From positions 11,640 to 75,639 of the forward strand of contig CAVTCL010000003.1 in NCBI GenBank assembly GCA_963733175.1: a DNA stretch of 64,000 nucleotides, given 5' to 3'. Source of the stretch: an uncultured Actinomycetota bacterium (GTDB lineage: Bacteria > Actinomycetota > CALGFH01). How positions within the stretch are numbered: the first letter of the stretch is position 1; the number at the start of each line of letters is the position of its first letter. Positions 22,398 to 50,804 of the stretch are shown here, in pieces. The notes under the pieces were generated by a model. The model was not told the origin of the DNA. It saw nothing but the letters and a program-made list of their open reading frames with translations, and searched no databases. The position numbers and the translations under genes were made by a program.

Positions 22398-22406
22398 CTG
22401 GGCCTC

Positions 22407-22700
22407 CTATCCGTCCAGCAGCCGCGGGTTGCCGGCGATGGCCGCGACCGGCCGGCTCGGGCTGGCGAAGATGATCGACTTGACCTTGCCCCGGGAGACG
22501 GCCCTGGCCGTCTCCTCCCCGATCTCCACCGCCTCCTCGACGGTGGCCAGGTCGCCCCCGAGGGCGACCGCGACCAGTCCCCCGCCCAGGCGCATCACCC
22601 CGTTCACCCGCACCTCGGTCGCCTTCACCATCGCGTCGATGGCGTCGAAGATGGGGACGAACCCTTCGGCCTCGATGAACCCGGCCGCCTCGTTGGCCAT
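22407..22700 (-). CDS. bacterial microcompartment shell protein, BMC-H, copy 2
   Basis: MANEAAGFIEAEGFVPIFDAIDAMVKATEVRVNGVMRLGGGLVAVALGGDLATVEEAVEIGEETARAV; ggagg Shine-Dalgarno. Confidence 0.85.
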   Translation of the reverse strand: MANEAAGFIEAEGFVPIFDAIDAMVKATEVRVNGVMRLGGGLVAVALGGDLATVEEAVEIGEETARAVSRGKVKSIIFASPSRPVAAIAGNPRLLDG

Positions 22701-22723
22701 GCCGCTCCTCCCTCTCGTGCGTG

Positions 22724-23549: not shown

Positions 23550-23562
23550 CGGGCACCCCGCT

Positions 23563-24528
23563 CACGAACGGGCTCCGGTCATCGGGGCGGGGCCGGCCGG
23601 CGTCGTCGGGGCCGGGGGCCCAGCCCGGCGGGGCGGGATGGGCCAGGGCCGGGCTGGCCGGGTCCCATTCGATCACCGCGTTGCCGGTGCCGATGATGGT
23701 CCCGTAGCCGAGCACGTCCCCCGGGATCTCCGGCCAGCCGAGGGCCGACAGCAGCCACGACAGGCTGCCCGCCTTGACCTCGGCCGCGGTGGCCTCGATG
23801 TGGCGGGGCAGGAACGCCCGCAGCTCCCGGGTCCTGCCCGCCCGGACCAGGGTGAGGAGATCCATGTCCCAGCGGTACTGGTGGTCGTCGTAGGGGTGCT
23901 CGGCGGCCATGTCCTCCGGCACCTCCGGCTCCCGGTCCCAGTGGAGGTGGGAAAGCGAGTTCGACCCGGCCAGCACGGCCCGCCGCCCGGTCTGCTCGAC
24001 GGCCCGGCGGGTGGCCGCGCCGAGGCGTTCCATCTGCTCCAGGTCGGCGTCGGAGTAGAAGTAGGGGTTGTTGTTGGCCGACAGCGACACCACCGGGACG
24101 TCCCAGTCCGGGTTGAGCAGGTGCAGGGCGCCGATGGTGGCGTAGTCGACCCGCACCCCCGGGTTGGTCATCTTGCGGGTGACCAGGCCGGCGTCGGCGG
24201 CGCAGTCGGCGATCGCCTCGGCCAGCTCGACGTCGGTGCGGAAGTCGTACCGGTAGCGCAGCAGGTGCGGGAAGATCGGCTCGACCGACAGGCCGCGGGG
24301 GTTGGGCACGCAGTTCACGTGGTGGCCGACCATGGTGATCCAGTGGGGGGCGTGGACCACGATCACGTCGGGCCGGTGCCGCTCCCGCAGCCGCCGCCTG
24401 GCCTCCTGATAGGCCCAGCGCAGCAGCTCCCAGCCACCCCGGGAGCGGGGCTCGTTCTGGGGCGGGTTCTCGGCGTAGATCAGATGCGGCGGGTGCGGCG
24501 CCAGGTACCCGGCCACGATCCCCGGCAT
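23563..24528 (-). CDS. LigB-type (class III) extradiol ring-cleavage dioxygenase subunit, copy 1 (AmnB/AmnA-like); 3' end uncertain
   Basis: MPGIVAGYLAPHPPHLIYAENPPQNEP...VVHAPHWITMVGHHVNCVPNPRGLSVEPIFPHLLRYRYDF...GYGTIIGTGNAVIEWD; no stop in this frame, while the +1 frame has a TGA at 23563-23565, 14 nt before the next ATG, so an indel near 23570-23660 is likely. Confidence 0.7.
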
Positions 24529-24679
24529 GCGGTCGTCGCCGTCCGGGCCCGGTCCGGCCGCCGGGACGGCCGCCGGAGGCTGGGCCGTCCGCGGCGCCCG
24601 CCGCCGGTCCCCCACGGTGACGTGGAAGACACGCGACATGCCCGGACGCTAGCCACCGGCTCGCCCGTTGCCTACGCTT

Positions 24680-24700
24680 GTGTCCGGTATCACCGGACAC
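24680..24700. promoter_or_regulatory. perfect inverted repeat GTGTCCGGT-atc-ACCGGACAC in the divergent IclR / dioxygenase-BMC promoter region; candidate operator
   Basis: 9-bp arms are exact reverse complements with a 3-bp spacer, 18 nt upstream of the IclR ATG (24718) and about 150 nt upstream of the dioxygenase ATG (24528). Confidence 0.55.
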
Positions 24701-24717
24701 CTGGCGGTAGGGCTGGG

Positions 24718-25479
24718 ATGACGAACAACGTCGCCCGGGTGGGCTCGGTCACCAAGGCGGCGCGGGTGCTGCAGGCGTTCACGCCGTTGGTGACCTTGCT
24801 CAGTGTGCGGCAGGTGGCCGAGCGGACCGGGATCCCGCGGAGCACCGCGCATGCGCTGTGCGTGACCCTGTGCGATGCCGGGCTGCTGGAGGAGGCGGCG
24901 GGCCGGGGATACCGGCTGGGGCCGGCCCTGGTCGGGCTCGGCGGGCAGGTGATCGAGCGGACCGGGCTGGTCGACGCCGCCGAGGGGGTGCTGGACCGCC
25001 TGGGTCCCGGGGACGGGCTCGAGATCCACCTGGGCCAGCTCGTCGGGGGGTGGGTCGTGTACCTGGACCGGGCCAGCGGGCCGGTGCGGGCGCCGATGCA
25101 CAACCGGGTCGGGCTGCGGGCCCCGGCCCACCTGACCGGGTGCGGCAAGGCCGCCCTGGCGCTGCTGCCGCCGGCCGAGGTGGCGGCCCGGGTCGAGGCG
25201 GTGTGCGCGGCCGAGTCGCGCCAGCTCCCCGACCTGCGCGCCCTGGCCGGGGAGCTGGCCGCCGCCCGGCGGGCCGGGTTCGTGGTCAGCGACACCTTCC
25301 AGGCCGGCCGCACCTCGGTGGCCGCCCCCGTCCCCGACCCGGCCGGCCAGCCGGCCGGCGGCATCTCGGTCGCCGGCCCGACCCCGCTGCTGGCCGGCGC
25401 CCGCCTCGACCGGATCCGGGACCAGGTGGTGGCGGCGGCCAGCCTGATCGGCCAGCGCCTGGCCGGCCCCGGCCGCTGA
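24718..25479 (+). CDS. IclR-family transcriptional regulator, divergent from the BMC/dioxygenase operon
   Basis: MTNNVARVGSVTKAARVLQAF...LSVRQVAERTGIPRSTAHALCVTLCDAGLL (helix-turn-helix) plus an effector domain; 253 aa. Confidence 0.8.
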   Translation: MTNNVARVGSVTKAARVLQAFTPLVTLLSVRQVAERTGIPRSTAHALCVTLCDAGLLEEAAGRGYRLGPALVGLGGQVIERTGLVDAAEGVLDRLGPGDGLEIHLGQLVGGWVVYLDRASGPVRAPMHNRVGLRAPAHLTGCGKAALALLPPAEVAARVEAVCAAESRQLPDLRALAGELAAARRAGFVVSDTFQAGRTSVAAPVPDPAGQPAGGISVAGPTPLLAGARLDRIRDQVVAAASLIGQRLAGPGR

Positions 25480-25503
25480 GCGGCCAGGGCATCCGCACGT
25501 CCG

Positions 25504-26656
25504 TCAGGCCCGGTCCGGGGACGGGGACCTGACGGCCCCGGCGATCTGGCCGGCGATCCGCTCGGCGTCCCGGCCGACCCCGCCGAGCAGCGAGGAGGTG
25601 AACCCGCTCAGGAACCACAGGCCGATGAAGTACAGGCCGGGCTGGGACGCGACCACGCCGCGGTCGTGCCGCGGGAGGCCGTCCTGGTCGAAGACCGGCA
25701 GGTCGACCCAGCCGAAGTCGGGCCGCGACCCGGTGCACCAGATGAGGTTGGCCACCTCCATGACGCGGCCGTCCTCCAGCACCGGGAGGCCGTCGCGCAC
25801 CCCGACCGTCCGCGGCACCCGCTCGACCCCGGCGGCGGCCAGCTCCTTGGGCCGCACCCGCTCCAGCGGCGCGGGGGTGATGCAGGGCCTTGGGCCGGAC
25901 CTTGCGGCCGACGGGGGTGTCGACGGTCAGCACGCGCGAGGCGAACCACCAGAACGGCGGGGTGAGCAGCCGGTCCCAGCGGCCGCCGGCGCGCACCGGG
26001 ATGTGGCCGGTGTCGGGGCCCGACAGCCAGGTCGGGTGGGCGCGCGAGACCTCCCAGGCGATCTCGGCCCCGGAGTTGCCGGCCCCCACCACCAGCACCC
26101 CGCCGGGCGCGCAGCTGGGAGGGGTTCCGGTAGCGGCTGGTGTCGAGCTGGACGATGCCCGGGTCGAGCTCGGCGGCGAAGGCGGGCACCCGGGGGCGCT
26201 GGTAGGCGCCGCTGGCCACCACCACCTGGTCGGCCTCCCAGCGGCGGTCGCCGGCCGCCACCAGGAAGCGGCCGCGCTGCCCAGGCGAGCCGGTCGACGC
26301 GGACGCCGTGGCGCACCGGGAGCTCGAACCGGGCGGCGTAGGCCTCCAGGTAGTCGGCGACCTCGTCCCTGGTCGGGGAACGACCAGGCCGGCGCGGGGA
26401 AGGGCAGGCCGGGCAGCCCCGAGTAGCGCGCCGGGGTGAACAGGCGCAGCGAGTCCCAGCGCCGCCGCCAGGCGTCCCCGGTCCGCTGGTCGGCGTCGAG
26501 GATCACGAACGGCCGGTCCCGCCTGGCCAGGTGGTAGCCGACGGCCAGGCCGGCCTGCCCGCCGCCGACGATCACGGTCTCGATCCGCTCCCCCGCCCGG
26601 CGGGGCCCTGGCCGGGCCGCAGGCACGTCCTGCTGGTTGCCCATGGCCGCCTCCAT
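25504..26656 (-). CDS. FAD/NAD(P)-binding flavin-containing monooxygenase (CzcO/TrkA-C-like), multiple apparent frameshifts
   Basis: ..ETVIVGGGQAGLAVGYHLARRDRPFVILDADQRTGDAWRRRWDSLRLFTPARYSGLPGLPFP.. / ..FLVAAGDRRWEADQVVVASGAYQRPRVPAFAAELDPGIVQLDTSRYRNPSQL.. / GVLVVGAGNSGAEIAWEVSR.. / ..ELAAAGVERVPRTVGVRDGLPVLEDGRVMEVANLIWCTGSRPDFGWVDLPVFDQDGLPRHDRGVV..PGLYFIGL are spread over three or more frames. Confidence 0.7.
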
Positions 26657-27540
26657 CAGGACGCTCCCGAGCGCGGCCCGCAGCGCCTGCAGGAACGCCT
26701 CGGGCTGCTCGACGGCGGGGTCGTCGGCGGCCCGCTCGACCACGTGCAGGGGCCAGCCGTAGCGGGCGCTGGCCGCCTCGGCGAGGCCGAGCCGCACCTG
26801 CCGGTCGTGGCGCCCCCAGATCAGGGTGGTGGGGGCGGCGATCCGGGCCAGCTCGGCCGGCGGGATCGCCGGCACCCCGAGCTGCGGCATCAGGTGCTTG
26901 AGGGCCTTGTTCACCCCGGGCGCGCGGGCCCGGTCGAGCGCGTACGCCTCCACCAGCTCGCCGCGCTCCCCCAGCCGCTCGCGCAGCCCGTCGAGGTCGA
27001 AGACGCACTGGCGGAACAGCCGCTCCTGGGTGCCCTCGGTCGGGCGGGCGGCGTAGGCGACCATGGCCAGGGCGTAGCGCGGCGTCGGCCAGAACCGGCC
27101 GAGGCCATAGGTGTCGACCAGCACCAGCCGGCCGAGCCGGTCCGGGTGGTCGATGGCGAAGCGGGCGGCGATCGCGCCGCCGAGCAGGTGGCCCGACCAG
27201 CGCCGGCGGCGACGGGCAGGTGCGCTCGACCAGCTCGCCCAGCCAGGCGAGTCACCCCCGCGGTGTCCAGCGGCGCGCCGGCGAGTCCCGAGGCGCCGTG
27301 GCCGGGCAGGTCGGGGGCGATCACCCGGTGGGTCCGGACCAGCTCGGGGATCACCTGCAGCCAGCAGGCGGCGAACTCCCCGGGGCCGTGCAGCAGCACG
27401 ACCGGCGGGCCGTCGCCGCCCTCCAGCACCGCGGTCGGGTGGCCGGCCAGGGTCAGCCGTCGCTCGCGCACGGGAGCGCCGGCGAGCAGGCGTTCGCGGA
27501 TGCCCTCCCCGGCCCGCTGGCGGGCCTGCAACCTCGGCAT
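26656..27540 (-). CDS. alpha/beta-fold hydrolase, apparent frameshifts
   Basis: ..PVVLLHGPGEFAACWLQVIPELVRTHRVIAPDLPGHGASG.. then ..GHLLGGAIAARFAIDHPDRLGRLVLVD... then ..IWGRHDRQV..; GxSxG-like HLLGG nucleophile elbow; two indels at about 27215-27270; the stop is implied by a TGA/ATG junction at 26654-26658. Confidence 0.65.
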
Positions 27541-27679
27541 CGGAACTGGTCATGGCGGACTCCTCCTGGTCGTTCGGTGACCCTGCCCGGCCAGGATGGG
27601 ACCGGACGGGCGGGCCACGCATCGGCCGAACCCGCCAGCTCGACCGGACGGCCGGCATGGGTGATTGCCGCCAGGACGC

Positions 27680-29325
27680 TCAGATGAGGCCGTGCTGGTA
27701 GGCGTGGGCGGTGGCCGCGGCCCGCGAGGAGACGCCCAGCTTGGCGAGGATGTTGCTCATGTGCCGGTCCACGGTCCGCTCGCTGACGAACAGGTCGGCG
27801 GCGATGGCCCTGTTGGTCTCGCCGGCCGCCACCAGGCGCAGCACCTCCAGCTCGCGCGGGGTCAGCCCGCCCGCCCCGGCGGCCGCCCCACCGGAGAGCG
27901 CCTCCACCCGGGCCAGGTCGGGGGCGGCCGCCAGCTCGCGGAAGACCAGGCGGGCGGCCGCCAGCTCCAGCTCGGCGCAGTCCCGGTCTCCCAGCTCCCG
28001 GCAGGCCAGCCCGATCAGGGCCCTGACCCGCCCCGCCTCGTACGGCACCTCCAGCTCCTGCCAGGCCGTCCAGGCGGCGGCGCAGGGCGCCCAGCGCGGC
28101 CCGCGGGTCGCCCTGGGCGAGCAGGACCGCCCCGTTGGCGTGGGCGGCCACCGCGGTCAGGTAGGGCGCGCCGAGGTCGTCGGCGAGCCGGGTCAGCTCG
28201 TCGGCGGCGGCGCCGCGCCGCCTCCACCTCGCCGGCGGCCAGCAGGATCTCGACCTGCGCCGGGAGCAGCCGTGAGCGGGACACGCGGTCGGCCGCCTCG
28301 TCCACCACCCGGCGGATCGCGGCCGCGGCGGTGTCGACCTGGCCCTGGGCCAGCCGCAGCAGGGCCAGGCCGGGCTGGGGGTCGCGGCCCCACTGGCTGG
28401 CCTGGCGGTAGGCCTCCTCGGCTCTGGCGAACTCGCCGCGCAGCCGGTGGAGCTCGCCCTGCTGGTAGTAGGCCAGCCCGGCCGCCGGATGGCCAGGCGG
28501 GTCCGAGAGCCGCTCGGCGGCCCGCTCGGCCTCCTCCATGGCGTCCGGCCAGGCGCCGTGGAGGGCCATGATCTCGGAGCGGTGGACCAGGCACTGGCCC
28601 CGGAAGGGGACCAGCTCCGGCTGGGCGGCGCACCAGCGGGTCAGCGCCGCCGTCCACTGCTGGGCCCGGCCCAGGTCGTAGATCTCCTGGCAGGCTTCGA
28701 TCACGGCGCAGTAGACGATCCCGGCCACCATCGGCGACACCTCGTCGGCCTCGACGGCGACCATGGCCTCGTCCAACAGGGCCACGCCCGCCACCGTCTC
28801 CCCCTCCAGCAGCCGCGCCCCGCCCAGGCCGAGGCGACCCAGCGCCATCAGGTCCGGGTCGCCGAAGCGGGCGCCGATCCTGGCCACCTGGTCGAAGTCG
28901 GCCCCGGCGGCCGTGGCGTCGCCCTCGACCAGGGCCTGGAGCGCCCCCGGGAACAGCAGGTAGCCCCGCTCGACGCAGTCGAGCTGGCCGTCGTCGAGCA
29001 GCCGGCGGGCCCGGGCCATCCAGCCCCCACCCCGGGCATGGTCGCCCCGGTTGAGGTACGCGTAGGCCAGCCAGAACGCGCCCCGCACGGCGCGCTCCAC
29101 CTCGCCCCGGTGCAGGAACGCGTGATGGGCGCGCGTCCCGAACTCGGCGCCGTCGTCGTCCCGGCCCACCAGGTAGGCGGCGGTGGCCAGCAGCTCCAGG
29201 TCCTCCGGGCCCAGCGGGGCCTGGCGGTCGGCGGCCGACAGCTGGGCGAAGGCTCCCGCCCATGCCCGCCGCGCGAAGGCCCGCCGACCCTCCTCGAGAG
29301 CATCAGCGCCTGCCATTTCCGGCAC
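27680..29325 (-). CDS. LuxR-family transcriptional regulator (N-terminal helical/TPR-like region plus C-terminal LuxR helix-turn-helix), apparent frameshifts
   Basis: The C-terminus [45 protein letters not shown] is the canonical LuxR helix-turn-helix; the N-terminal [33 protein letters not shown]...[15 protein letters not shown] is typical of actinobacterial LuxR regulators; three frames are used between 27700 and 28150. Confidence 0.7.
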
Positions 29326-29370: not shown

Positions 29371-29850
29371 TCAGCGGCCCGGGTCGACCGGGGTCCGCTG
29401 GTCGGGGACGGCGGTCGGGTCGAGGACCCAGTGCTGGCTGACGGTGGCCCGGTAGAGGCGGTACAGGGAGGGCGCCAGGACGTCGGCGGGGGTCTTGCTG
29501 CGGGCCCCGGCGCGCAGGCCGGCCTCGCCCGGGTAGACCTGGAGGCCGCGCTCCAGGTCGGGGCCGGACAGCTCGGCGGCCGTGGCCGCCATGTAGACGG
29601 CCTGGCCGGTGCCGACGGGGGCCTGGGAGTCGAACACGACGATGCTGAGCTCGGGTCGGGCGGCCAGGTTCCGCGAGTGGGTCGCCTCCGGGGAGGAGAT
29701 CCAGTAGAGGTCGCGGTAGTCGTCGGCGGCGAAGAACACCGGCGACACCCAGGGGTTGCCGGCGGCGTCGGCGGTGCCGAGGGTCATGTAGTGGTTGGCG
29801 TCGAGGATGGCCCTGGCGACGGCGTCCAGGTCGGGCTGCTGCTGGGTCAC
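29371..29850 (-). CDS. pyridoxamine 5'-phosphate oxidase (PPOX)-family protein, possibly F420/FMN-binding
   Basis: 159 aa ..AILDANHYMTLGTADAAGNPWVSPVFFAADD.. split-barrel motif; GTG start with ggagg Shine-Dalgarno; overlaps the esterase stop (GTGA). Confidence 0.65.
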   Translation of the reverse strand: MTQQQPDLDAVARAILDANHYMTLGTADAAGNPWVSPVFFAADDYRDLYWISSPEATHSRNLAARPELSIVVFDSQAPVGTGQAVYMAATAAELSGPDLERGLQVYPGEAGLRAGARSKTPADVLAPSLYRLYRATVSQHWVLDPTAVPDQRTPVDPGR

Positions 29851-30608
29851 GTGAACCTCCCGAGTCGGCGGGTGACCTCGGCCCAGGCGGGCGAGGCGGG
29901 GTCGATCACGGCCATGTGGTCGACGCCGGCCAGCTCGACCAGCTCGACGGGGTCGCCGGCGGCGGCCGCGGCCGCGGCGTGGGCCCGGCTCTGCTCCACC
30001 GGCACCCGGTCGTCGGCGTCGCCGTGGACCAGGAGCTGGGCGACGCCCAGGGGCAGCCGGGCCAGGGGGGAGGCGAGCCGGTAGCGCTCGGGGTCCTGGT
30101 CAGGGGTGGCGCCGAGGAACTCGGCGACGGCGCCCTCCCCGATGCCGCCGGCCGCTCCGGCGTGCAGGTCGCACACGCCGGCCAGGCTCACCACCAGGCG
30201 CGGGGCGACCAGCGGCCCCGCCCCGGGGGCGCCGGCCGGCAGCCCCGCCCGGGCGGCCGACCACAGCGCGAGGTGGCCGCCGGCCGAGTGCCCGGCCACG
30301 ACCAGCCGGTCCAGGTCCAGCGGTTCCCGCCCGGCCAGCCGGGCCAGATGGTCCAGGCCGGCGGCCACGTCCTCGCAGGTGCCCGGCCAGCCGCCGCCGG
30401 GCTGGCCGACCCGCCGGTACTCCAGGTTCCAGGCCGCGAACCCCCGGCCGGCCAGGTCGGCGGCGAGCGGCCGCATCAGCTCCAGGGTCCGCTGGGCCCG
30501 CCAGAACCCGCCGTGCAGCAGCACCACCACCGGCCAGGGCCCGTCGCCGGCGGGCCGCCACAGCTCCCCGAACCGGTCCGCCCCCGGACCGTAGGCCTCG
30601 ACCGTCAC
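29847..30608 (-). CDS. alpha/beta hydrolase (esterase/lipase, BD-FAE type)
   Basis: ..VVVLLHGGFWRAQ...VVAGHSAGGHLALW...HGDADDRVPV; oxyanion HGG, GHSAG nucleophile and Asp/His; GTG start overlaps the HAD stop (GTGA). Confidence 0.75.
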   Translation of the reverse strand: MTVEAYGPGADRFGELWRPAGDGPWPVVVLLHGGFWRAQRTLELMRPLAADLAGRGFAAWNLEYRRVGQPGGGWPGTCEDVAAGLDHLARLAGREPLDLDRLVVAGHSAGGHLALWSAARAGLPAGAPGAGPLVAPRLVVSLAGVCDLHAGAAGGIGEGAVAEFLGATPDQDPERYRLASPLARLPLGVAQLLVHGDADDRVPVEQSRAHAAAAAAAGDPVELVELAGVDHMAVIDPASPAWAEVTRRLGRFT

Positions 30609-31258
30609 AGCCCGAGCCGGCGCCGGACCCGGGCGAAGGACCCGGCCGGGTCGGCGATGTCGAAGTGGACCCCGGACATGCCGGCGGCGGTGGCGCCGGC
30701 CACGTTGGCCGGGTCGTCGTCGACGAACACGATCGCCGGCGGGTCCAGGCCCATCGCCGCCGCGGCCTGGTCGTAGGCCCGAGGGTCGGGCTTGGCCACG
30801 CCGGTCTCGCTCTCGTCCAGGAGCACGTCGAAGGAGCTGAGGAAGTCGCTGCGCTCGACCACCTCCCGGCTCAGGAACGCCACCAGCTTGCTGGTGAGCA
30901 GGCCGGTGCGCCGCCCGGCGGCGCGGGCGTCGGCGACCAGGGCACGACCCTCCGGCCGCACGGCCAGCCCGGCCGGCGTCTCGAACATCGCCCTGGTCAC
31001 CTCCGGCCAGCTCACGGGCCGGCCGAGCAGCGCGCTGATCTCGGCCGCCCGCCGGTCGAAGTAGCCGGCGGAGGCCAGCTCGCCGGCCCGGACCGAGCGC
31101 CACAGCGGGTCGGTGGCCGGGTCGAGCGGGCCCCGCCAGGGCAGGGTCCCTGGCGGCCAGCCGTTGCGGGCCTCGAACTCCTCCAGCAGCTCCCACGGGG
31201 TGGGGAGCAGGACCCCGCCCACGTCGAGCAGGACCCCCTTGCCGTCGGCACCCGCCAT
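30605..31258 (-). CDS. HAD-superfamily hydrolase, paralog 3
   Basis: MAGADGKGVLLDVGGVLLPTPWE...IVFVDDDPANVAGATAAGMSGVHF; 217 aa. Confidence 0.7.
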   Translation of the reverse strand: MAGADGKGVLLDVGGVLLPTPWELLEEFEARNGWPPGTLPWRGPLDPATDPLWRSVRAGELASAGYFDRRAAEISALLGRPVSWPEVTRAMFETPAGLAVRPEGRALVADARAAGRRTGLLTSKLVAFLSREVVERSDFLSSFDVLLDESETGVAKPDPRAYDQAAAAMGLDPPAIVFVDDDPANVAGATAAGMSGVHFDIADPAGSFARVRRRLGL

Positions 31259-32299
31259 TCAGCCGGGCCCGGCCTGGCCGGGTGCGCCGGGTCGGCCCAG
31301 GTAGGCGAGCATCCGGTCCATGGCCGAGGTCCCAGGGGGGACAACGGCCTGGCGGGGCCGGCGGCTCCACACCGTCTCCGGCCGGGCCTGGAGCAGCCAC
31401 AGCTCGCGCCCGCCCGCCGCTCCGGGGGCCGCGCCCGCCGCCGTCGTTCCCGGTGCGGCCGGCGGCCCGACCGCCCACTCGACGTCCTGGGGCACGCCCA
31501 GCGCCTGCTCGACGCGCTTGCCCAGCCTGGCCAGCTCGGCCACCTCGGCGTCGTCCAGGCACGGCCGCGCCCGGTCGGCGGCCGGCACCTCGACCCGGGC
31601 GACCCGCCCGGCGGCCGGGTCGAACCGGTAGGCGAACGCCTTCTCGCCGACCGAGCGGGAGCGCAGCTCCAGGGTGACCTTGTCGACGGCGAACCGGTCG
31701 GGGGTGACCTCCCCCTCGACCACCGCGGTGCCGAGCCCGTAGGCGGCCTCGATGGTGACCTGGGAGCGGTCGCCGGTCAGCGGGTCGAGGGTGAGCAGCA
31801 CCCCGGCGGCCTCGGCCGGGACCATGGCCTGGACGACCACGCCCATGGCGACCTCGTCGTCACCGATGCCCAGCCGGGCCCGGTAGGCGACCGCGCGGTC
31901 GGTGAACAGGCTCGCCCAGCAGCGGGCGACGTTGGCCAGCACGGCATCGGCGCCCCGGACCCACAGGTAGGTGTCCTGCTGGCCGGCGAAGGAGGCCTCG
32001 GCGGTGTCCTCGGCGGTGGCGCTGGAGCGGACCGCCACCGGCGGGTCCCGGTCCCCGGCCCGGCCGAGGCGCCGGTAGGCGGCGACGAGCTCGGCGGCCA
32101 GGCGGTCGCCGACCGTCGCCGGCCGGCCGCCGGCGGCCAGCGCCTCCCGGTAGGCGGCGGTGGTGACGGCGAACCCGGGCGGCACCCGGTGGCCCTGGCG
32201 GACCAGGTGGCCGAGCCCGACCGCCTTCCCCCCGACCAGCGGCGCGGCGTCGGCGCCGCACGCCTCCAGCGGGAGGACATGGCTGGCCGGGTCGCGCAC
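31259..32299 (-). CDS. PEP-utilising enzyme N-terminal ATP-binding domain protein (PPDK_N; PpsB-like), copy 2 (intact)
   Basis: 346 aa ..GGKAVGLGHLVRQGHRVPPGFAVTTAAY...VAVRSSATAEDTAEASFAGQQDTYLWV...MGVVVQAMVPAEAAGVLLTLDP...LDDAEVAELARLGKRVEQALGVPQDVEWAV...LWLLQARPETVWS; GTG start with ggagg Shine-Dalgarno. Confidence 0.85.
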   Translation of the reverse strand: MRDPASHVLPLEACGADAAPLVGGKAVGLGHLVRQGHRVPPGFAVTTAAYREALAAGGRPATVGDRLAAELVAAYRRLGRAGDRDPPVAVRSSATAEDTAEASFAGQQDTYLWVRGADAVLANVARCWASLFTDRAVAYRARLGIGDDEVAMGVVVQAMVPAEAAGVLLTLDPLTGDRSQVTIEAAYGLGTAVVEGEVTPDRFAVDKVTLELRSRSVGEKAFAYRFDPAAGRVARVEVPAADRARPCLDDAEVAELARLGKRVEQALGVPQDVEWAVGPPAAPGTTAAGAAPGAAGGRELWLLQARPETVWSRRPRQAVVPPGTSAMDRMLAYLGRPGAPGQAGPG

Positions 32300-32369
32300 C
32301 TGGGCACCTCCAGAGTTCGGGCGGCACCCTCACCGTAACAGCCCCAGGGCGTCGTGGCTGGCGCGGCGC

Positions 32370-33269
32370 CTAGCCCTTGACCGCGCCCATGGTGAAGCCG
32401 GAGATGAAGCGGTCCAGGAACAGGTTGAACACCAGGGCGATCGGGACCGCGACCAGGATCGCCGCCGCCTGCAGCGACTGCCAGAAGAACACGTCGCCGC
32501 GGATCAGCTCGGTGGGGACGCCGGTGGAGACGACCTTCTCGGTGGTGGGTGAGACAAAGGCCAGGGCGTAGATGAACTCGCTGGCGGTGAGGGTGAAGGC
32601 GAACACCACCACGGCCACGATGCCGGGGAAGGCCAGCGGGAGGACGACCCGGACGAACGCGGCCAGGCGGCTGTAGCCGTCGACCATGGCCTGCTCCTCG
32701 ACGTCCCTGGGGATGGCCTTGAGGAACCCGATCAGCAGCCAGATCGAGACCGGGATGGTGATGGTCGGGTAGACCAGCACCAGCGACCAGGTGGAGTCCT
32801 GCAGGCCGGTGGCCACGACCAGCCGCGACAGCGACAGGAACAGCAGGGTCGGCGGGACCAGGTAGACGAAGAAGATGGCGATGGCCATCGGGCCCGACCA
32901 GGGCCGGTCCAGCCGGGCCAGCGAGTAGGCGGCGGGCAGCCCCAGCACCAGGGTGATGGCCACCACCAGCAGCCCCACCCACAGGGTGTTCCAGATGAAG
33001 GTGAGGAAGGCGGTGTCGCGCAGCAGGTACAGCAGGTGGTCGGGGGTGGCGGCCAGGTTGAAGAAGAACGGGCTGTTCTCGGGGTTGTAGAGGTCGCGGT
33101 TCTGCTTGAACGCGGTGACCAGGCTCCACAGGAACGGGGCGGCGCAGATGAAGGCGGCCAGCACCGCCGCCACGTAGAGGCCGACCCGGGCCATGACATG
33201 GCGGCGCCGGTAGTGCCGCCGCAGCCGCTCGGCCGCGACGCCCTTGGGCACCTCGGCGGTGGCGACCAC
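32370..33269 (-). CDS. carbohydrate ABC transporter permease (MalG-like)
   Basis: 299 aa, six predicted TM segments, EAA-like loop ..IPRDVEEQAMVDGYSRLAAFVRVVLP. Confidence 0.85.
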   Translation of the reverse strand: MVATAEVPKGVAAERLRRHYRRRHVMARVGLYVAAVLAAFICAAPFLWSLVTAFKQNRDLYNPENSPFFFNLAATPDHLLYLLRDTAFLTFIWNTLWVGLLVVAITLVLGLPAAYSLARLDRPWSGPMAIAIFFVYLVPPTLLFLSLSRLVVATGLQDSTWSLVLVYPTITIPVSIWLLIGFLKAIPRDVEEQAMVDGYSRLAAFVRVVLPLAFPGIVAVVVFAFTLTASEFIYALAFVSPTTEKVVSTGVPTELIRGDVFFWQSLQAAAILVAVPIALVFNLFLDRFISGFTMGAVKG

Positions 33270-34205
33270 CTACAGCACCTCCATGCGCCGGACCGCCCGC
33301 AGGATGGCGATGGCCGCGGCCAGCAGCAGCGGGAACAGGAACAGCGCCACCGCCGCCCCCTGGGCGACGTCGCCGCCCTCGATGCCGCGGATGAACGCCC
33401 AGCTGGCCAGCACCTGGGTGGAGTTGGTGGGGCCGCCGCGGGTGAGCACGTACACCACCGTCATGTCGGTGAAGGTCAGGATGGCCCCGAACAGGGCCGC
33501 GACCGCGACCACGGGCAGGGTCAGGGGGATGGTCACCTCGAGCATGCGCCGCCAGAAGCCGGCCCCGTCGACCCGGGCCGCCTCCTCGATGTCCTTGGGG
33601 ATGGCGACCAGGCCGGCCAGGATGATGACCGCCGACAGCGGGACCAGCCGCCACACGTGGACGGCGATCACCGACGCCATGGCCAGGTGCGGCCGGCCCA
33701 GCCAGTAGACGTTGCTGTCGATCAGGCCCAGGTTGCGCAGCACCCAGTCGATCGGGCTGAAGACCGAGTCCAGCATCCACAGCCAGGCCACCGCCGACAG
33801 GGCCACCGGGGTCGTCCAGGGCAGCAGGACCAGGAACCGGACCAGCCACTTGCCGCGGAAGTCGGCCACCAGGATGTTGGCCAGGACCTTGCCGAGGACC
33901 ACGATCAGGGCCATCGAGACCACGGTGAAGACGAAGGTGTTGCGCAGCGAGCGCCAGAACACCGGGTCGTCGAGGGCGCGCTGGAAGGTCTGCAGGCCGG
34001 CCCACTGGAAGCTGGGGTCGCCGGCGGTCACGTCGCTGAAGGCGAACCCGATGGCCAGGAAGAACGGCACCGCCACGAGCGCGACCACGTACAGGATCGA
34101 CGGCAGCAGGAACCAGATCGCCATCTGGCGCTCGTTGTCGGCGAAGTGCCGGGCCGGCCTCCTCCCGGCGCGGACGCCGGGGCGCTCGGTGGTGGCCGCG
34201 TCCAT
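33270..34205 (-). CDS. carbohydrate ABC transporter permease (MalF-like)
   Basis: 311 aa, ..IPKDIEEAARVDGAGFWRRMLEVTIPL.. EAA motif. Confidence 0.85.
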   Translation of the reverse strand: MDAATTERPGVRAGRRPARHFADNERQMAIWFLLPSILYVVALVAVPFFLAIGFAFSDVTAGDPSFQWAGLQTFQRALDDPVFWRSLRNTFVFTVVSMALIVVLGKVLANILVADFRGKWLVRFLVLLPWTTPVALSAVAWLWMLDSVFSPIDWVLRNLGLIDSNVYWLGRPHLAMASVIAVHVWRLVPLSAVIILAGLVAIPKDIEEAARVDGAGFWRRMLEVTIPLTLPVVAVAALFGAILTFTDMTVVYVLTRGGPTNSTQVLASWAFIRGIEGGDVAQGAAVALFLFPLLLAAAIAILRAVRRMEVL

Positions 34206-34209
34206 GGCC

Positions 34210-35253
34210 TCAGCCCCCGACCGGGACGGGGTCGGCCCGGTGCCCGCTTTCGGCGTCGAAGAACCGCAGCCGGTCGGGGTGCACGGCGAACTCGTACGTC
34301 TCGCCGGCGGCGATCGGGGTCGCGACCGTGGCCGGCAGCCGGGCGATGACCCGGGTCTCCTCGCCGATGCGCGTGGCCGTGCCGTACACGTGCCGGTCGC
34401 CGGAGAGGTACTCGATCCGGTCCACCTTGAACGGCACCAGCGTTCGCTCGGGCCCTCCGACGTGCTCGGCCGGCAGCAGGTGCTCGGGGCGGAACCCGAC
34501 GAAGCGGCCGTCGCGGGGCACCAGGTTCATCGGCGGGGAGCCGATGAAGGTGGCCACGAAGGTGTCGGCCGGGTCGTCGTAGACCTCGACCGGCCGGCCG
34601 AGCTGGCGCACGCGGCCGTGGTCCATGACCGCGATCCGGTCGCCCAGGCCCATGGCCTCGGCCTGGTCGTGGGTCACGTAGATGGTGGTCGTCCCGACCC
34701 GCTGCTGGAAGCGCTTGAGCTCGTCGCGGGCGCTGGTGCGCAGCTTGGCGTCCAGGTTGGAGAGCGGCTCGTCCAGCAGGAACACGTGGGGCTCGCGGAC
34801 CATCGCCCGGGCCAGGGCGACCCGCTGGCGCTCGCCGCCCGACAGCTGGCGGGGCCGGCGGTCCAGCAGCTGGTCGATGCCGAGCAGCTCGGCCGCCCAG
34901 CGGGCCTTGCGGACCTGCTCGTCCTTGTCCATCCGCTCGGCCTTGAGCGGGAAGACGATGTTCTGGAGGACGTTCTTGTGCGGGTACAGGGCGTAGCTCT
35001 GGAAGACCATGGCGATCTTGCGGGCCCGCGGCGGCAGGTCGTTGACGACCTGCCCGTCGATGCGGACCTCCCCCTCGCTCGGCTGCTCCAGCCCGGCGAT
35101 GGTGCGCAGCAGGGTGGTCTTGCCGCACCCCGAGGGGCCGAGGAGGACGAGGTACTCGCCCTCCTCGGTGGCCAGGTCGATGCCGTCCACGGCGTGGACC
35201 CGCCCGCCCTCGAACTGCTTGACGAGCCCCCGGACCTCGACGACCTTTGTCAC
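34210..35253 (-). CDS. ABC transporter ATP-binding protein (MalK/UgpC-like)
   Basis: Walker A GPSGCGKTT, signature LSGGERQRVALARA, Walker B FLLDEPLSNLD; 347 aa with a C-terminal TOBE-like domain. Confidence 0.9.
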   Translation of the reverse strand: MTKVVEVRGLVKQFEGGRVHAVDGIDLATEEGEYLVLLGPSGCGKTTLLRTIAGLEQPSEGEVRIDGQVVNDLPPRARKIAMVFQSYALYPHKNVLQNIVFPLKAERMDKDEQVRKARWAAELLGIDQLLDRRPRQLSGGERQRVALARAMVREPHVFLLDEPLSNLDAKLRTSARDELKRFQQRVGTTTIYVTHDQAEAMGLGDRIAVMDHGRVRQLGRPVEVYDDPADTFVATFIGSPPMNLVPRDGRFVGFRPEHLLPAEHVGGPERTLVPFKVDRIEYLSGDRHVYGTATRIGEETRVIARLPATVATPIAAGETYEFAVHPDRLRFFDAESGHRADPVPVGG

Positions 35254-35266
35254 GGCCGGCCGCCGA

Positions 35267-36707
35267 TCACGTGCCGCCGACCAGGCCGCGCTTGCGCCAC
35301 TTCTCGAAGATCGGCTTGATCTGGGCCTCGGCCTGGGCCACGGCCTCCTTGGGCGAGGCCTCGCCGCGGGCCGCGCTGGCGAACATGTTCGGGATCACGA
35401 AGGTCCCGAACACCTCGCCGATGGCGGTGTTGGACGGCCCCGGGTAGCCGATGTTGGTGCTCCAGTCGGTGGCGTCCTTGAGGAAGGCCAGCTTGTCGGC
35501 CGGGTTGGCCCCGTAGGGGTCCTTGGCCAGCCAGCCGTCGAGCTGGGGCACCCGCTCGGCCCAGGCCGGGAAGTCGTACAGCTTGGAGTGCCAGGTGGCC
35601 GAGGCGAAGTTCTCGGTGTAGTAGAGCAGGAACTCCTTGGCCGCGTCGGCGTTGGCCGCGTGCTTGGGGATGATCCAGTTGTAGAGCACGTGCTGGGCGG
35701 CGCGGGCGTCGGCGGGCCCGCGCAGCGCCGGGACGAAGCCGACGTCGTTGGCCACGTCGGGGTTGGCCCCCTGGGCGGTCCGCCAGGCCGAGATCGAGTT
35801 GAGGATGTAGGAGAGCTTGCCCGGCGACCAGGCCCTGGTTGTTGGAGGCGGCGTTCCAGGAGAAGACCTCGTCGGTCATGGCCTGCTTGAACAGCTTGGT
35901 CATGAACTCGACGGCGGCCACGGTCTCCTCGGAGTTGATCACCACCTGCTCGTTCTCGTCCTGGACCGAGGCGCCGTAGGACCACATCAGGGCCCGGCCG
36001 GCCATGTTGGAGTCGATCTCCTGGGACATGCCGATGCCGAGCTGGGTCCCCTTGCTCTTCTTGATCTCGGCGCCGCCCTGCAGGAGCTCGTCCCAGGTGG
36101 TGGGGCCCTTGGGCAGGCCCACAGCCGTCCACAGCGAGGTCCGGTAGTCGCCGGGGTCGGGCACCCAGCCAGGCGAGTAGGAGTAGAAGCGGCCGGTGGC
36201 CGGGTTGAAGCTGGACTGCTTGCTCAGCTCCAGCTGCTGGCCCCAGCGCTTGGTGGCCTCGTCGGTGATGTCCTTGAGGTCGAGGACGCTGGGCTCGAAC
36301 TGCGACAGCGGGGCGATGTACTGGATCACGTCATGACCCTGGCCGGCCTGGATCTCGGCCGCGATCCGGGTCGGGATCTGGGCGTTGTCGATGTGGTCGA
36401 CGGTCACGTTGACCCCGACCTTCTTGCCCCAGTCCTGGGCGAAGGGACGGAACCACTGGTCGTGGCTGGGCACGAAGTGGCTCCAGAGCAGGATCTTGAG
36501 GTCACCCGAGAGCTTGGTCCTCGGCTCGGTGAAGCTGACCGACGGCGCCTGGCCGGCCGCCTCCTCTCCGCCGCCGGGGCCGCCGCCGCCCGGTTCGCTG
36601 GTGCAGGCGGCGATGGCCGCCCCCATGCCCGCGACCCCCACCGCCCGCAGGAACTGTCGTCGGTCGGGTGTCCACAACGAGTGTGATCGGGATCCGCTGT
36701 CGGCCAT
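35267..36707 (-). CDS. ABC transporter substrate-binding lipoprotein (sugar), apparent frameshift
   Basis: RRQFLRAVGVAGMGAAIAAC Tat/lipobox signal; the frame changes at about 35820 (extra base in gcccggc); the C-terminal ..ANDVGFVPALRGP...AVAQAEAQIKPIFEKW is in a second frame. Confidence 0.75.
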
Positions 36708-36788: not shown

Positions 36789-37865
36789 TTATGCCTCGGA
36801 GTTCGGTTCCCAGGTCCCGGCGGGGATGGCCGGCGGCAGGACCAGCACGCTCAGGCCGAGGCCGCTGAGCGACGCCATGCCGAGCACGCCGGCCCACAGC
36901 TCCGGCGGCCAGGCGATCCCGTAGGCGAGGGCGTAGGCGGCCATCCAGGCGCCCCAGAGCAGCACCGGGGCCAGGGCGGCGACGGCCCGGAACGCGCCAG
37001 GGCGGTCGGGGCCGGGCCGCAGCCGGGCGATCAGGAGGTCGGTGGCCAGCCCGCCGGCCAGCATGGCCGGGACCAGCGCCCCCAGGACGAACTCGCGCAG
37101 CGAGGTGAGCCCGACCGCGCCGACGCCGGCCAGCAGGGTCACGGTGCCGAAGGGCAGCCGCCAGCGGCGGGCCAGCAGCAGCACCGGCGCGACCACGATC
37201 AGGTTGGTGACCAGCACGCTGGCCACCCCGACGATGGTGGTGAGGAGCCCGGCCGGGCCGTCGGCCTCGGCCATGGACGGGGCGCGGCTGACGAACGCCG
37301 ACAGGTACTGGAAGAAGAACAGCACCACGGCGGTGGTCAGGGCGGTCGCCCACAGGGCGGGCAGCAGGGACCGGGCCGGGGAGCGGGCGGGCAGGTCGGG
37401 CGACGACCAGGCCGAGCGGACCGGGCTGGTCACCATCAGCAGGCCGCCGCCGAGCAGCAGCAGGTGGGAGGGGCTGAGCAGCGCGGCCACGCCCGTCTCG
37501 ACCCCGAACATGGTGTGCCAGGCGCCGTCGGCGACCCCGCCGGCCACGAACAGCACCACCCCGACCAGCCCGAGGCCGTAGCCGGCCGGCACCAGGGCGG
37601 GGTCGAAGCGGCCGCGCTGGTGGCGGGCGACGAGCCGGGCCAGCACCACCGTCGAGACCGCGAAGCCCAGGTAGAACACGGCGTGCCAGGGACTGAAGAA
37701 GGTCTCGAGGCCGGGCTGGTTGAGGTGCGCCCAGCCGTCGAGGAACAGCCCCCCGACCACCCAGGTGCCGAGCAGGGCCGCGGCCAGGTCGTCGCCCCAG
37801 CCGGCCCGCGGCCGCCCGGGGGTGGTGGCCGCGCCCGCCGGCGGGGTCGTCCTGACGCTCGCCAT
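36789..37865 (-). CDS. integral membrane protein, function unknown
   Basis: About 359 aa, ten or more hydrophobic segments; no catalytic motif recognised. Confidence 0.5.
   Translation of the reverse strand: MASVRTTPPAGAATTPGRPRAGWGDDLAAALLGTWVVGGLFLDGWAHLNQPGLETFFSPWHAVFYLGFAVSTVVLARLVARHQRGRFDPALVPAGYGLGLVGVVLFVAGGVADGAWHTMFGVETGVAALLSPSHLLLLGGGLLMVTSPVRSAWSSPDLPARSPARSLLPALWATALTTAVVLFFFQYLSAFVSRAPSMAEADGPAGLLTTIVGVASVLVTNLIVVAPVLLLARRWRLPFGTVTLLAGVGAVGLTSLREFVLGALVPAMLAGGLATDLLIARLRPGPDRPGAFRAVAALAPVLLWGAWMAAYALAYGIAWPPELWAGVLGMASLSGLGLSVLVLPPAIPAGTWEPNSEA

Positions 37866-44825: not shown

Positions 44826-50804
<5,979 letters not shown>

Follow-up and report, generated by a model that had tools for sequence, protein, structure and literature searches.

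Two-component phenolic dikinases include phenylphosphate synthase (PpsAB) of Thauera aromatica, CreHI of Corynebacterium glutamicum, HpeHI of Rhodococcus rhodochrous GD02, and AcvAB of Sphingobium sp. SYK-6. These systems combine a ~38-kDa protein consisting of an ATP-grasp domain only (beta component) with a ~68-kDa substrate-binding/swivel-His protein (alpha component); they operate in aromatic catabolism and have a HAD-superfamily hydrolase encoded alongside. The alpha components HpeH, CreH, and PpsA are approximately 45% identical in pairwise comparison and carry a T/SxxGGxxxH motif with Met, rather than a regulatory Thr, at position -2 (PMC12167813). Precedents for a dikinase acting with a HAD-superfamily phosphatase are AcvAB with AcvF (bioRxiv 10.1101/2022.04.28.489975) and HpeHI with HpeD (PMC9618137). 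Rifampin phosphotransferase (RPH) contains ATP-grasp, substrate-binding, and swivel His modules in one polypeptide of ~865 aa and acts in antibiotic resistance.

Among metabolosomes, the ARO microcompartment is, to our knowledge, the only one for which a role in aromatic metabolism has been proposed. ARO loci (Sutter et al. 2021, PMC8217296; Doron et al. 2023, PMC10470539) occur in actinobacterial hosts and encode IclR, two LigB-type 2-aminophenol/catechol dioxygenase subunits, two BMC-H proteins, one BMC-P protein, a YjgF/AmnD-like deaminase, and a lower meta-cleavage pathway. In type I loci, HyuA/HyuB (hydantoinase/acetophenone-carboxylase-like) is the sole candidate upper-pathway enzyme, and the authors described the true initial substrate and upper pathway as unknown (PMC10470539). 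In the main texts and the searchable supplementary text of PMC8217296 and PMC10470539, we found no dikinase or PEP-utilizing terms, and the supplementary text also lacked PF00391 and PF01326. CUT1 importers of the MalEFGK/UgpBAEC type combine an SBP_bac_1 lipoprotein, a MalK/UgpC-like TOBE ATPase, and two BPD_transp_1 permeases, with tight gene junctions.

We analyzed a 64,000-nt stretch of DNA (the window); all coordinates are positions in this window, and L-numbers denote related contigs or loci. An earlier note had described eight minus-strand genes, from a substrate-binding protein (SBP) to a PNPOx-like protein, and third-position GC periodicity and Pfam matches bore out these genes and their order (Table 1), but not the binding-protein ORF as read or the tightness of junctions throughout. 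Spacings were 13, 4, and 0 nt in the first block (SBP–ATPase–permease–permease) and 0 nt, a GTGA overlap, and a 4-nt overlap in the second (PPDK_N–HAD–esterase–PNPOx). The reported GTGA or abutting junctions were thus found within the two blocks but not between them, where 70 nt separate permease 2 from the PPDK_N gene. The PNPOx gene is a variable member of the second block, being truncated in L084 and absent from a clade with ~70% identical PPDK_N proteins (the 70% clade). Kynurenine-formamidase-like activity was also weighed for the esterase, whose best solved match is merely a generic carboxylesterase.

Table 1. Features of the window, in order of coordinates
Feature	Coordinates	Strand	Remarks
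PpsB-1 + PpsA-1	10096–11160 (PpsB-1), 11157 to about 13030 (PpsA-1)	+	Self-contained second pair; one frameshift each
HAD-2, second D-x-G-G HAD hydrolase	18921–19631	-	Directly downstream of PpsA-2
PpsA-2, putative substrate-binding + swivel-His component	19925–21754	-	609 aa; S559-DVGGIMS-H567
BMC-P	21790–22059	-	ARO-type BMC core (21790–24639)
BMC-H	22062–22397	-	BMC core
BMC-H	22410–22700	-	BMC core
LigB dioxygenase beta	22727–23540	-	BMC core; frameshifted
LigB dioxygenase alpha	23584–24639	-	BMC core
IclR regulator of BMC operon	24718–25479	+	Divergent
PNPOx-like (PPOX class) small flavin/deazaflavin protein	29371–29850	-	PNPOx_N
Esterase, BD-FAE/Abhydrolase_3, hormone-sensitive-lipase-like alpha/beta-hydrolase type	29847–30608	-	Best solved match 9x6a carboxylesterase, E 4e-34
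HAD-3, HAD-IA hydrolase	30605–31258	-	Motif I D-x-G-G; candidate aryl-phosphate phosphatase
PpsB-2, putative ATP-grasp component of two-component small-molecule dikinase	31259–32299	-	PPDK_N only (PF01326), E 6e-91
Intergenic gap/apparent deletion junction	32300–32369	-	Sole real intergenic gap among the eight genes
ABC permease 2, last cassette gene	32370–33269	-	BPD_transp_1
ABC permease 1	33270–34205	-	BPD_transp_1
ABC ATPase, UgpC/MalK type	34210–35253	-	ABC_tran 1.9e-36 + TOBE_2
CUT1-type substrate-binding lipoprotein	35267–36707	-	Tat-like signal; SBP_bac_1 E 7e-25; frameshifted in assembly

The first block (Unit 1, 32370–36707) has the SBP_bac_1 protein, MalK-like ATPase, two BPD_transp_1 permeases, and tight junctions of a CUT1 importer, and forms a self-contained four-gene cassette with a specificity that is probably carbohydrate-like. 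The SBP weakly resembled sugar/oligosaccharide binders, with Thermotoga MalE3 as its best solved relative (E 2e-13, partial coverage), and the NCBIfam model nearest to the ATPase was UgpC, with a score below the model cut-off. In contrast to the MalEFGK/UgpBAEC type, the ATPase gene lies within the cassette, straight after the SBP gene.

An SBP gene is present, but the ORF from which the earlier note read it (35250–36707, 485 aa) is a frame chimera. The coding frame changes near 35820–35840, and the window has one extra base at 35820 compared with both L084 and L173; deleting one G yields a 479-aa SBP ending at 35267, which matches the length of intact orthologs. The LuxR, alpha/beta-hydrolase, FMO, and LigB-beta genes of the window are also frameshifted. 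Because approximately 14 further single-base insertions occur at 22.9–28.3 kb relative to L084 and L085, assembly error is a likelier cause of the SBP frameshift than real pseudogenisation. Were the frameshifts real, the transporter and part of the island would be pseudogenes in a decaying region, and the arrangement would have no present function; the approximately 15 single-base insertions relative to two relatives, their clustering at 25.8–28.3 kb, and L085, which demonstrates that transporter loss can happen, are in line with such decay. We nevertheless consider it unlikely, as every indel is a single-base insertion in a sequence of 75% GC, scattered frame breaks also occur in L172 and L085 (similar ENA accession numbers) as assembly error would look, and third-position GC stays at 0.95–1.0 throughout the broken genes and thus gives no hint of relaxed selection.

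Neither PpsB-2 nor the 100% identical cluster representative P0001 matched a contig in an exact-sequence look-up, and relatives' loci were found via the HAD protein and its homologs. Comparison with these loci did not bear out the earlier placement of the PPDK_N gene inside a carbohydrate-uptake operon. Close relatives have 0.65–4.8 kb of other genes between the ABC cassette and the PPDK_N gene, compared with 70 nt in the window: an opposite-strand isochorismatase gene in L084 and L002, and HxlR/aminotransferase, an opposite-strand isochorismatase, a 223-aa gene, and Lactamase_B, in that order, in L173/L174. L085 retains remnants of two permease genes only, its SBP and ATPase genes having been lost, while in the 70% clade (L086–L088 and L169/L170) Lactamase_B and amidohydrolase genes lie upstream of PPDK_N, with no ABC cassette of the window type there. 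The cassettes of L175–L178 (SBP 72–76% identical) stop after permease 2; their neighbors are ctaC/trpD/qcr or response-regulator genes, and searches for PpsB and BMC gave no hits there, nor did aromatic genes lie near the cassette. The transporter is therefore independent of the module: the four-gene cassette is widespread among actinomycetes and in the window marks the edge of the aromatic island, and the PPDK_N, HAD, esterase, and PNPOx genes are not conserved as downstream members of its operon in the compared loci. Judged from these gene orders, the adjacency of transporter and PpsB-2 module in the window is the apparent end point of a deletion series in relatives. Where PpsB is at least 84% identical (the closest clade), every locus has the transporter at some distance upstream of the module, and a loose functional association may exist in that lineage.

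Within the gap, TGTTACGGT at 32340–32332 fits an extended -10 of the form TGn-TAnnnT, and a GGAGG ribosome-binding site (32311–32307) precedes the PpsB-2 GTG start at 32299. A TGTTAC(G/C)GT element was found ~32 nt upstream of the PpsB start in six loci having an intergenic region there, regardless of the upstream gene, a conservation which hints that it may be the promoter of the PpsB module. A sigma-70 consensus scan of the gap gave no strict match, and Rfam at gathering thresholds gave no matches in the whole window. Terminator-like hits were all intragenic and their number was not clearly above the shuffled control; since the 70-nt gap contains no recognisable terminator, read-through from the ABC genes is possible in this strain.

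The absence of a terminator, the shared strand, and the short distance between permease and PPDK_N would suit a single eight-gene operon, in which the ABC transporter imports a glycosylated or esterified aromatic that the esterase, HAD, and dikinase component process before the BMC pathway, as would the esterase in the module and the transporter upstream of it in the window, L084, L172, and L173. Such an operon is highly unlikely, given the genes that intervene between the blocks in relatives (one on the opposite strand, or as many as four), the degradation of the transporter in L085 and its absence from the 70% clade while module and BMC stay together, the standalone orthologous cassettes, and the frameshift in the SBP gene of the window itself. 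The earlier interpretation consequently holds in part: the link to the aromatic/BMC island stands for the PpsB-2 module, as does a partner supplied in trans, but the functional link of the transporter does not.

Inspection of PpsB-2 (346 aa) supported the PpsB-like ATP-binding protein proposed earlier, with an ATP-grasp domain and no swivel domain; PF01326 was its sole Pfam family, as in beta components (ATP-grasp only, about 38–41 kDa). The best solved match was PDB chain 9goj (387 aa, E 1e-60), which we take to be the HpeI structure of PMC12167813, and nucleotide-binding motifs were conserved. Loci of Thauera, Aromatoleum, Geobacter, and Rhodococcus (including Rhodococcus opacus) encode PpsB homologs with 40–49% identity to PpsB-2, and full-length comparison of PpsA-2 with the PpsA homologs adjoining them gave 42–47%; apart from the partial 9goj alignment, these figures refer to homologs in loci and not to the characterised PpsAB, CreHI, HpeHI, or AcvAB proteins. 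NCBIfam has no PpsB-specific model, and matches of PpsB-2 to its PEP synthase, RPH, and PigC models were far below cut-offs. PpsA-2 contained PF00391 (721–791 of the extended ORF), scored 774 bits against the NCBIfam PRK08296 subfamily, above the cut-off, and its SDVGGIMSH sequence fits the T/SxxGGxxxH motif with Met at -2, as in alpha components (about 70 kDa, with the catalytic His on a C-terminal swivel domain). Homologs of PpsA-2 with 70–76% identity occur in the cultured strains Euzebya tangerina, Pseudonocardia asaccharolytica, and Actinomycetospora, whereas no tblastn match among plasmids reached 60% identity.

The most plausible identity of PpsB-2 is thus the ATP-grasp half of a two-component phenolic dikinase akin to PpsAB, CreHI, HpeHI, and AcvAB. 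Glucan/water-dikinase-like sugar phosphorylation, which would restore a link to sugars, was considered for PpsB-2 and rejected on the grounds of its identity to PpsB-type homologs, its match to the presumed HpeI chain, and its travelling with the BMC and not with the transporter. RPH appeared among the NCBIfam and PDB matches and shares the three modules and, presumably, the dikinase chemistry, but in the window two genes of a catabolic island divide these modules between them. The locus shares with the phenolic dikinases the two protein types, a HAD-superfamily hydrolase encoded alongside, and an aromatic catabolism setting. It differs from them in that the alpha gene, in relatives, shares 4 nt with the BMC-P shell gene, the HADs belong to subfamily IA with D-x-G-G and are not NagD-like, and the alpha and beta genes are apart: they are adjacent in 131 of 173 family loci but separated by 9.5 kb in the window and by 4.7–9.2 kb in the BMC-associated clade.

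The BMC operon of this actinobacterium has LigB alpha/beta directly upstream of two BMC-H genes and BMC-P, with a divergent IclR; its content (IclR, two LigB subunits, two BMC-H, BMC-P, the 609-aa swivel-His protein, HAD, and YjgF) is of ARO type, an assignment made by gene content and order and not by the shell-protein color clades of Sutter et al. Lower meta-cleavage genes (DmpG, DmpF, FAA_hydrolase, and Aldedh) lie elsewhere in the window. No Hyu/hydantoinase family was detected among the window ORFs submitted to Pfam (51–64 kb outside the scan), and, in contrast to type I ARO loci, the part of HyuA/HyuB would be taken here by a dikinase of the PpsA/PpsB type together with HAD hydrolases and an esterase. 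PPDK_N was located upstream of an ARO-type BMC operon in 8/8 loci whose PpsB shows 69% identity or more and whose downstream flank is long enough (the window, L084, L085, L086, L087, L169, L170, and L172), a count that overstates independence, as the relatives are metagenome contigs, several from one study, of two or three clades only. The operon series in these loci was IclR, LigB, LigB, BMC-H, BMC-H, BMC-P, with the PEP-utilizers gene next wherever the contig reaches, and PpsA overlapped BMC-P by 4 nt in L084, L086, L087, and L169. Each BMC-linked relative locus contained exactly one PpsA and one PpsB.

As the earlier note anticipated, the swivel partner of PpsB-2 appears to be encoded elsewhere: PpsA-2 co-occurs with PpsB-2 in every informative relative, and from this co-occurrence we infer that PpsA-2 is the partner. 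PpsA-1 is less likely because PpsB-1 overlaps it by 4 nt. The PpsB-1/PpsA-1 pair is preceded by a His_Phos_1 gene and followed by a Rieske oxygenase gene, with related gene content in L171. PpsB-2 might instead serve PpsA-1, use both swivel proteins interchangeably, or be a redundant paralog of PpsB-1; HpeH and HpeI gave no evidence of a stable complex (PMC12167813), which makes cross-talk between paralogous pairs conceivable, and PpsB-1 and PpsA-1 are each frameshifted in the assembly. These alternatives are nonetheless very improbable, considering that PpsB-1 and PpsA-1 overlap and that L171 and loci like it again have the two genes side by side, that PpsB-2 and PpsB-1 are only 47% identical, and that loci such as L087 and L169 have the BMC-type PpsA and PpsB only, with no second pair on the contig.

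We thus regard it as likely that the eight-gene span joins two independent units through a deletion: a CUT1 importer, and an accessory module of the ARO BMC (29371–32299), whose PpsB-2 would form a dikinase with PpsA-2, encoded 9.5 kb downstream right after the BMC-P gene. The substrate class and order of steps are drawn by analogy with PpsAB, CreHI, HpeHI, and AcvAB. PpsB-2 would bind ATP and phosphorylate His567 on the swivel domain of PpsA-2, which would hand the phosphoryl group to a phenolic hydroxyl bound by PpsA-2, so that an aryl phosphate forms and ATP ends as AMP and Pi. Phosphorylation would protect or activate the molecule during its processing by other enzymes; the HAD hydrolases beside each component would then strip the phosphate, and the resulting catechol- or 2-aminophenol-type compound would pass to the LigB dioxygenase of the BMC. 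The HAD hydrolases are candidate aryl-phosphate phosphatases, of uncertain activity because the Asp+2 general acid/base is missing from each of the three HAD paralogs. In the window we identified no enzyme of the kind that uses a phosphorylated intermediate in the Hpe, Acv, and Cre pathways (biotin carboxylase, UbiD-type carboxylase, or P450), and without an enzyme acting on this intermediate, dikinase and phosphatase alone would be a futile cycle.

What looked like a kinase gene in a sugar-uptake operon is an ordinary adjacency made by deletion. A two-component phenolic dikinase accompanies every ARO-type locus recovered, as do a HAD next to the alpha gene (wherever the contig extends that far) and, upstream, a module encoding an esterase and usually another HAD hydrolase. 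This linkage points to a phosphorylated phenolic intermediate and provides a lead to the ARO upper pathway, with four small soluble proteins that can be expressed and screened against candidate phenols. It would also carry the recently recognised use of phosphate as a protecting group, known from the Cre, Hpe, and Acv pathways, into a compartmentalised pathway. More speculatively, and with low probability, the ARO BMC of this lineage may be fed via a phosphate-protected route. The split dikinase (PpsB-2 cytosolic, PpsA-2 co-translated with the shell vertex protein) would phosphorylate a phenolic precursor, perhaps a hydroxy- or amino-acetophenone; enzymes whose genes lie between PpsB-2 and PpsA-2, the flavin monooxygenase and esterases, would tailor the phosphorylated compound; and the unusual D-x-G-G HADs would free the catechol or 2-aminophenol, which is prone to autoxidation, no earlier than at the shell or within it. 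In that case, the anionic aryl phosphate would be the species crossing the BMC shell, and the dikinase would have replaced, without being orthologous to it, the HyuAB of type I ARO loci.

Because the window has a G+C content of approximately 75%, at which long spurious ORFs are common, genes were distinguished from spurious ORFs by third-position GC periodicity together with Pfam searches. By this periodicity, the coding signal between 29371 and 36707 was confined to minus-strand frames, and Pfam confirmed all eight gene types named in the earlier note: a substrate-binding protein (SBP; SBP_bac_1), an ATPase (ABC_tran with TOBE_2), two BPD_transp_1 permeases, PPDK_N, HAD, a BD-FAE/Abhydrolase_3 esterase, and PNPOx_N. 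The PPDK_N protein (PpsB-2, 346 aa) contained PPDK_N as its sole Pfam domain (E 6e-91). The features are summarized in the table.

Features of the importer region and its surroundings, listed from the high-coordinate end
Feature	Position	Strand	Remarks
GH2 beta-galactosidase, GH36 alpha-galactosidase, more BPD_transp_1 permeases	45631-52555		second, clearly sugar-directed system; IclR gene and uricase nearby
tRNA-Ala (GGC), ARAGORN call	50501-50594		94 nt; only a weak ORF there in crude GC3-based gene calls
Multi-pass membrane protein	36789-37865		358 aa; no Pfam or NCBIfam match
SBP ORF	35250-36707	minus	485 aa
Gap between the blocks	32300-32369		70 nt
PpsB-2 (PPDK_N)	31259-32299	minus	beta component, ATP-grasp
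HAD-3	30605-31258	minus	HAD-IA
TPR/GerE LuxR-type regulator		minus	downstream of PNPOx
Alpha/beta-hydrolase and small flavin monooxygenase (FMO)	25286-27658	minus	after LuxR gene; FMO of Pyr_redox_3 / Lys_Orn_oxgnase type
IclR regulator		plus	divergent, after FMO
LigB dioxygenase subunits (two)		minus	after IclR
BMC-H (two) and BMC-P		minus	after LigB genes
PpsA-2	19925-21754	minus	609 aa; alpha component, C-terminal PEP-utilizers swivel domain
HAD-2, then YjgF/RidA-family gene	18921-19631 (HAD-2)	minus	after PpsA-2; HAD-IA
DUF222 and HNH endonuclease ORFs	14626-16183		frame-broken; between first and second aromatic clusters
BMC-independent cluster	5529-14295		long IclR gene, two extradiol dioxygenases, His_Phos_1, PpsB-1, PpsA-1, Rieske oxygenase
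Third HAD-IA paralog	686-1345

The earlier note had read these genes as one operon with GTGA or abutting junctions; the observation was real and needed two corrections. The first is that junctions are tight within each of two blocks and not between them: the SBP-ATPase-permease-permease block has spacers of 13, 4, and 0 nt, and the PPDK_N-HAD-esterase-PNPOx block has a 0-nt spacer followed by two 4-nt overlaps. The second is that the 485-aa ORF is a frame chimera. Its coding frame switches near 35820-35840 by third-position GC periodicity, and in translation the binding-protein sequence runs on in a second frame to a stop at 35267. Removal of one G from GCCGGGCAAG restored a 479-aa SBP, which is also the length of dozens of intact SBP orthologs, and when aligned with L084 and with L173, two related metagenome loci, the window DNA carries one extra nucleotide at 35820. 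Comparison with L084 and L085 added approximately 14 further single-base insertions between 22.9 and 28.3 kb, giving approximately 15 in all (22894-28216 plus 35820; L084, L085, and L173 compared), with 12 packed into 2.4 kb (25.8-28.3 kb). They break the genes for LigB-beta, the FMO (at least 4), the alpha/beta-hydrolase (2), LuxR (2), and the SBP (1), and PpsB-1 and PpsA-1 show one frame change each. Decay or local pseudogenization seems less likely as the source of these insertions than long-read assembly error, since third-position GC holds near 1.0 across the broken genes.

The surroundings of close PPDK_N relatives were read on metagenome contigs and tabulated by tblastn; the family of stand-alone ATP-grasp proteins to which PpsB-2 belongs is very large (7888 hits). 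Upstream of PPDK_N, L173/L174 (PpsB approximately 85% identical) have the ABC cassette, HxlR/aminotransferase, an opposite-strand isochorismatase, a 223-aa gene, and a Lactamase_B gene overlapping the PPDK_N start, while L084 and L002 (approximately 87%) have the cassette (its 3' end only in L002) and the opposite-strand isochorismatase. The window has the cassette at 70 nt. L085 (84%; 75% to the L084 protein) has two permease-gene remnants only, the SBP and ATPase genes being gone, and shares with the window the junction sequence after the permease stop, save for a 46-nt difference. The 70% clade (L086-L088 and L169/L170, PpsB approximately 70%) has Lactamase_B and amidohydrolase genes and no ABC cassette of the window's type. 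In L175-L178, where the SBP is 72-76% identical, the cassettes consist of four genes, with the second permease last, and adjoin ctaC, trpD, qcr genes or response regulators, and no PpsB, HAD, esterase, or BMC homolog was found within 10 kb of them. Taken together, this series of relatives and the stand-alone cassettes indicate that transporter and PPDK_N module are separable in both directions, and the reading of a kinase gene lodged within an operon for sugar uptake was not borne out. The tight co-linearity in the window is most simply explained by deletion of genes between the transporter and the module, and the transporter itself is of a known, ordinary kind.

The genes upstream of the cassette (the 358-aa membrane protein, NUDIX, a cNMP-binding protein, a family-A DNA polymerase, and others) are unrelated to aromatics, which places the cassette at the border of the aromatic island. 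The membrane protein is 87-96% conserved in L084, L085, L172, and L173, always directly upstream of the cassette or its remnants. In L177/L178 (10001-14399), the cassette (SBP 72%) lies between PfkB/Fe-S genes and ctaC, ctaF, trpD, ctaE, and qcrCAB; these respiratory-chain and other housekeeping surroundings suggest a housekeeping rather than a catabolic-island role for it. The tRNA-Ala call is likely a false positive because of its length.

Whatever gene lies upstream, the window, L084, L002, and L085 share a conserved stretch of 55 nt directly ahead of the GTG start (32299 in the window). It holds TGTTACGGT, which fits an extended -10 element (TGn-TAnnnT), together with a GGAGG ribosome-binding site. 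L172 and L169/L170 have variants of this -10-like element equally far from the start; it is absent in L173/L174, where PPDK_N overlaps Lactamase_B. This pattern suggests a promoter of the PPDK_N module's own. No terminator was found in the 70-nt gap, so some read-through from the ABC genes is possible in the window strain.

An esterase gene follows PPDK_N in every close locus whose contig extends far enough, the HAD gene after PPDK_N is lacking in L086 and L088 only, and the gene for PNPOx is cut short in L084 and missing from the 70% clade. The series IclR-LigB-LigB-BMC-H-BMC-H-BMC-P lies within 0.1 to 6 kb in all eight loci with enough downstream flank (the window, L084, L085, L086, L087, L169, L170, and L172), and in L084, L086, L087, and L169 there is a 4-nt overlap between BMC-P and the gene for the swivel-domain protein. 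The LuxR-hydrolase-FMO segment is missing from L172 and the 70% clade, so that the module there abuts the IclR gene (with one methyltransferase gene between in L172). The proposed link to the BMC island has support in the case of the four-gene module and not of the transporter. The hydrolase and FMO, also found in L084 and L085, form a pairing that resembles the Baeyer-Villiger monooxygenase plus aryl-ester esterase routes for acetophenones.

Of 173 loci of the wider family, 131 have the alpha gene next to the beta gene; only in the BMC-associated clade do the two lie 4.7-9.5 kb apart. Since there is a single gene of either kind in every BMC-associated locus, PpsB-2 is taken to pair with PpsA-2. 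The suggestion of a partner in trans is supported in the case of the four-gene module only. PpsA-1, farther down, is already overlapped (4 nt) by PpsB-1 among genes for a histidine phosphatase, two extradiol dioxygenases, a Rieske oxygenase, and lower meta-cleavage enzymes, and L171 shows the same pairing with related neighbours. This BMC-independent cluster again brings together dikinase, phosphatase, and ring-cleavage genes; the related gene content of L171 is in a different order. The DUF222/HNH ORFs, a typical actinobacterial selfish element, hint at a mosaic assembly of the island.

PpsB-2 showed 40-49% identity to matches in loci of Thauera aromatica, Aromatoleum, Geobacter, and Rhodococcus opacus, and PpsA-2 showed 42-47% full-length identity to the PpsA homologs adjoining those PpsB genes. 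The best solved relative of PpsB-2 was chain 9goj (387 aa, E 1e-60), deposited only under the name 'phosphoenolpyruvate synthase', and the nucleotide-binding stretches VAVRSS..ED, QQDTYLW, QDVEW, and LLQARPET were conserved in the alignment. This chain is presumed to be HpeI, whose structure is described in PMC12167813. That paper groups two-component small-molecule dikinases, which are rifampin phosphotransferase homologs in split form, into a subfamily and describes T/SxxGGxxxH with Met at -2 for HpeH, CreH, and PpsA; the PpsA-2 motif S559-DVGGIMS-H567 fits this pattern. The same study reported no evidence that the two components form a stable complex, which fits a partner encoded elsewhere. 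Judged by sequence, PpsB-2/PpsA-2 is a new member of this recently defined family, with a predicted phosphorylation activity.

Phosphorylation, modification, and dephosphorylation succeed one another in the Cre pathway as they do in the Acv and Hpe pathways. In the latter two, a HAD-superfamily phosphatase (AcvF, HpeD) takes the phosphate off again (bioRxiv 10.1101/2022.04.28.489975; PMC9618137); in the case of Hpe, dephosphorylation follows the action of a carboxylase on the phosphorylated intermediate. A HAD-IA gene after each dikinase gene and a histidine phosphatase ahead of PpsB-1 point to a similar logic here, by which an aryl phosphate would eventually give a catechol- or 2-aminophenol-type substrate of the LigB dioxygenase. 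Two findings weaken this reading: no enzyme needing the phosphorylated form was identified, and motif I is D-x-G-G, not D-x-D, in all three HAD-IA paralogs.

The L-D-x-G-G form of motif I also occurs in every HAD ortholog with a complete N-terminus (L084, L085, L087, L172, and L173); the paralogs are without the Asp+2 general acid/base of canonical HAD phosphatases, and their motifs II-IV look normal. HAD-2 (and L087:10632-11306) has a possible Arg-rich N-terminal extension, RRRR..W.AAGARA, before the catalytic Asp; the L172 gene call begins downstream of this extension. In proteobacterial loci (Betaproteobacteria and Geobacter-type bacteria), a gene for a PNPOx-like protein with 26-36% identity to that of the window recurs at a constant distance from the ppsA/ppsB homologs, lying on the opposite strand approximately 2.2 kb upstream of ppsA (L009, L016, L025, L029, L033, and approximately 25 other loci); it may be an unremarked dikinase accessory or mere shared synteny.

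The gene series from IclR to YjgF/RidA matches the ARO type, a BMC type proposed for aromatics (PMC8217296, PMC10470539). These two papers assign type I loci to Micromonosporales and type II loci to Pseudonocardiales, give HyuB/HyuA as the sole enzyme proposed for the upper pathway, and say that the actual precursor is not known. The terms dikinase, PEP-utilizing, and phenylphosphate are not mentioned in their main texts or in the supplementary text searched, and no paper in the literature collection searched joins 'phenylphosphate synthase' with 'microcompartment'. PpsA-2 homologs with 70-76% identity are present in Pseudonocardia asaccharolytica, Euzebya tangerina, Actinomycetospora, and Actinoplanes, and the first two species belong to the ARO dioxygenase data set of PMC10470539, so the dikinase may already sit unremarked in catalogued loci. 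Dikinase genes split around the microcompartment operon are a new variant, and this arrangement matters as a means of putting the upper pathway of the ARO BMC to the test.
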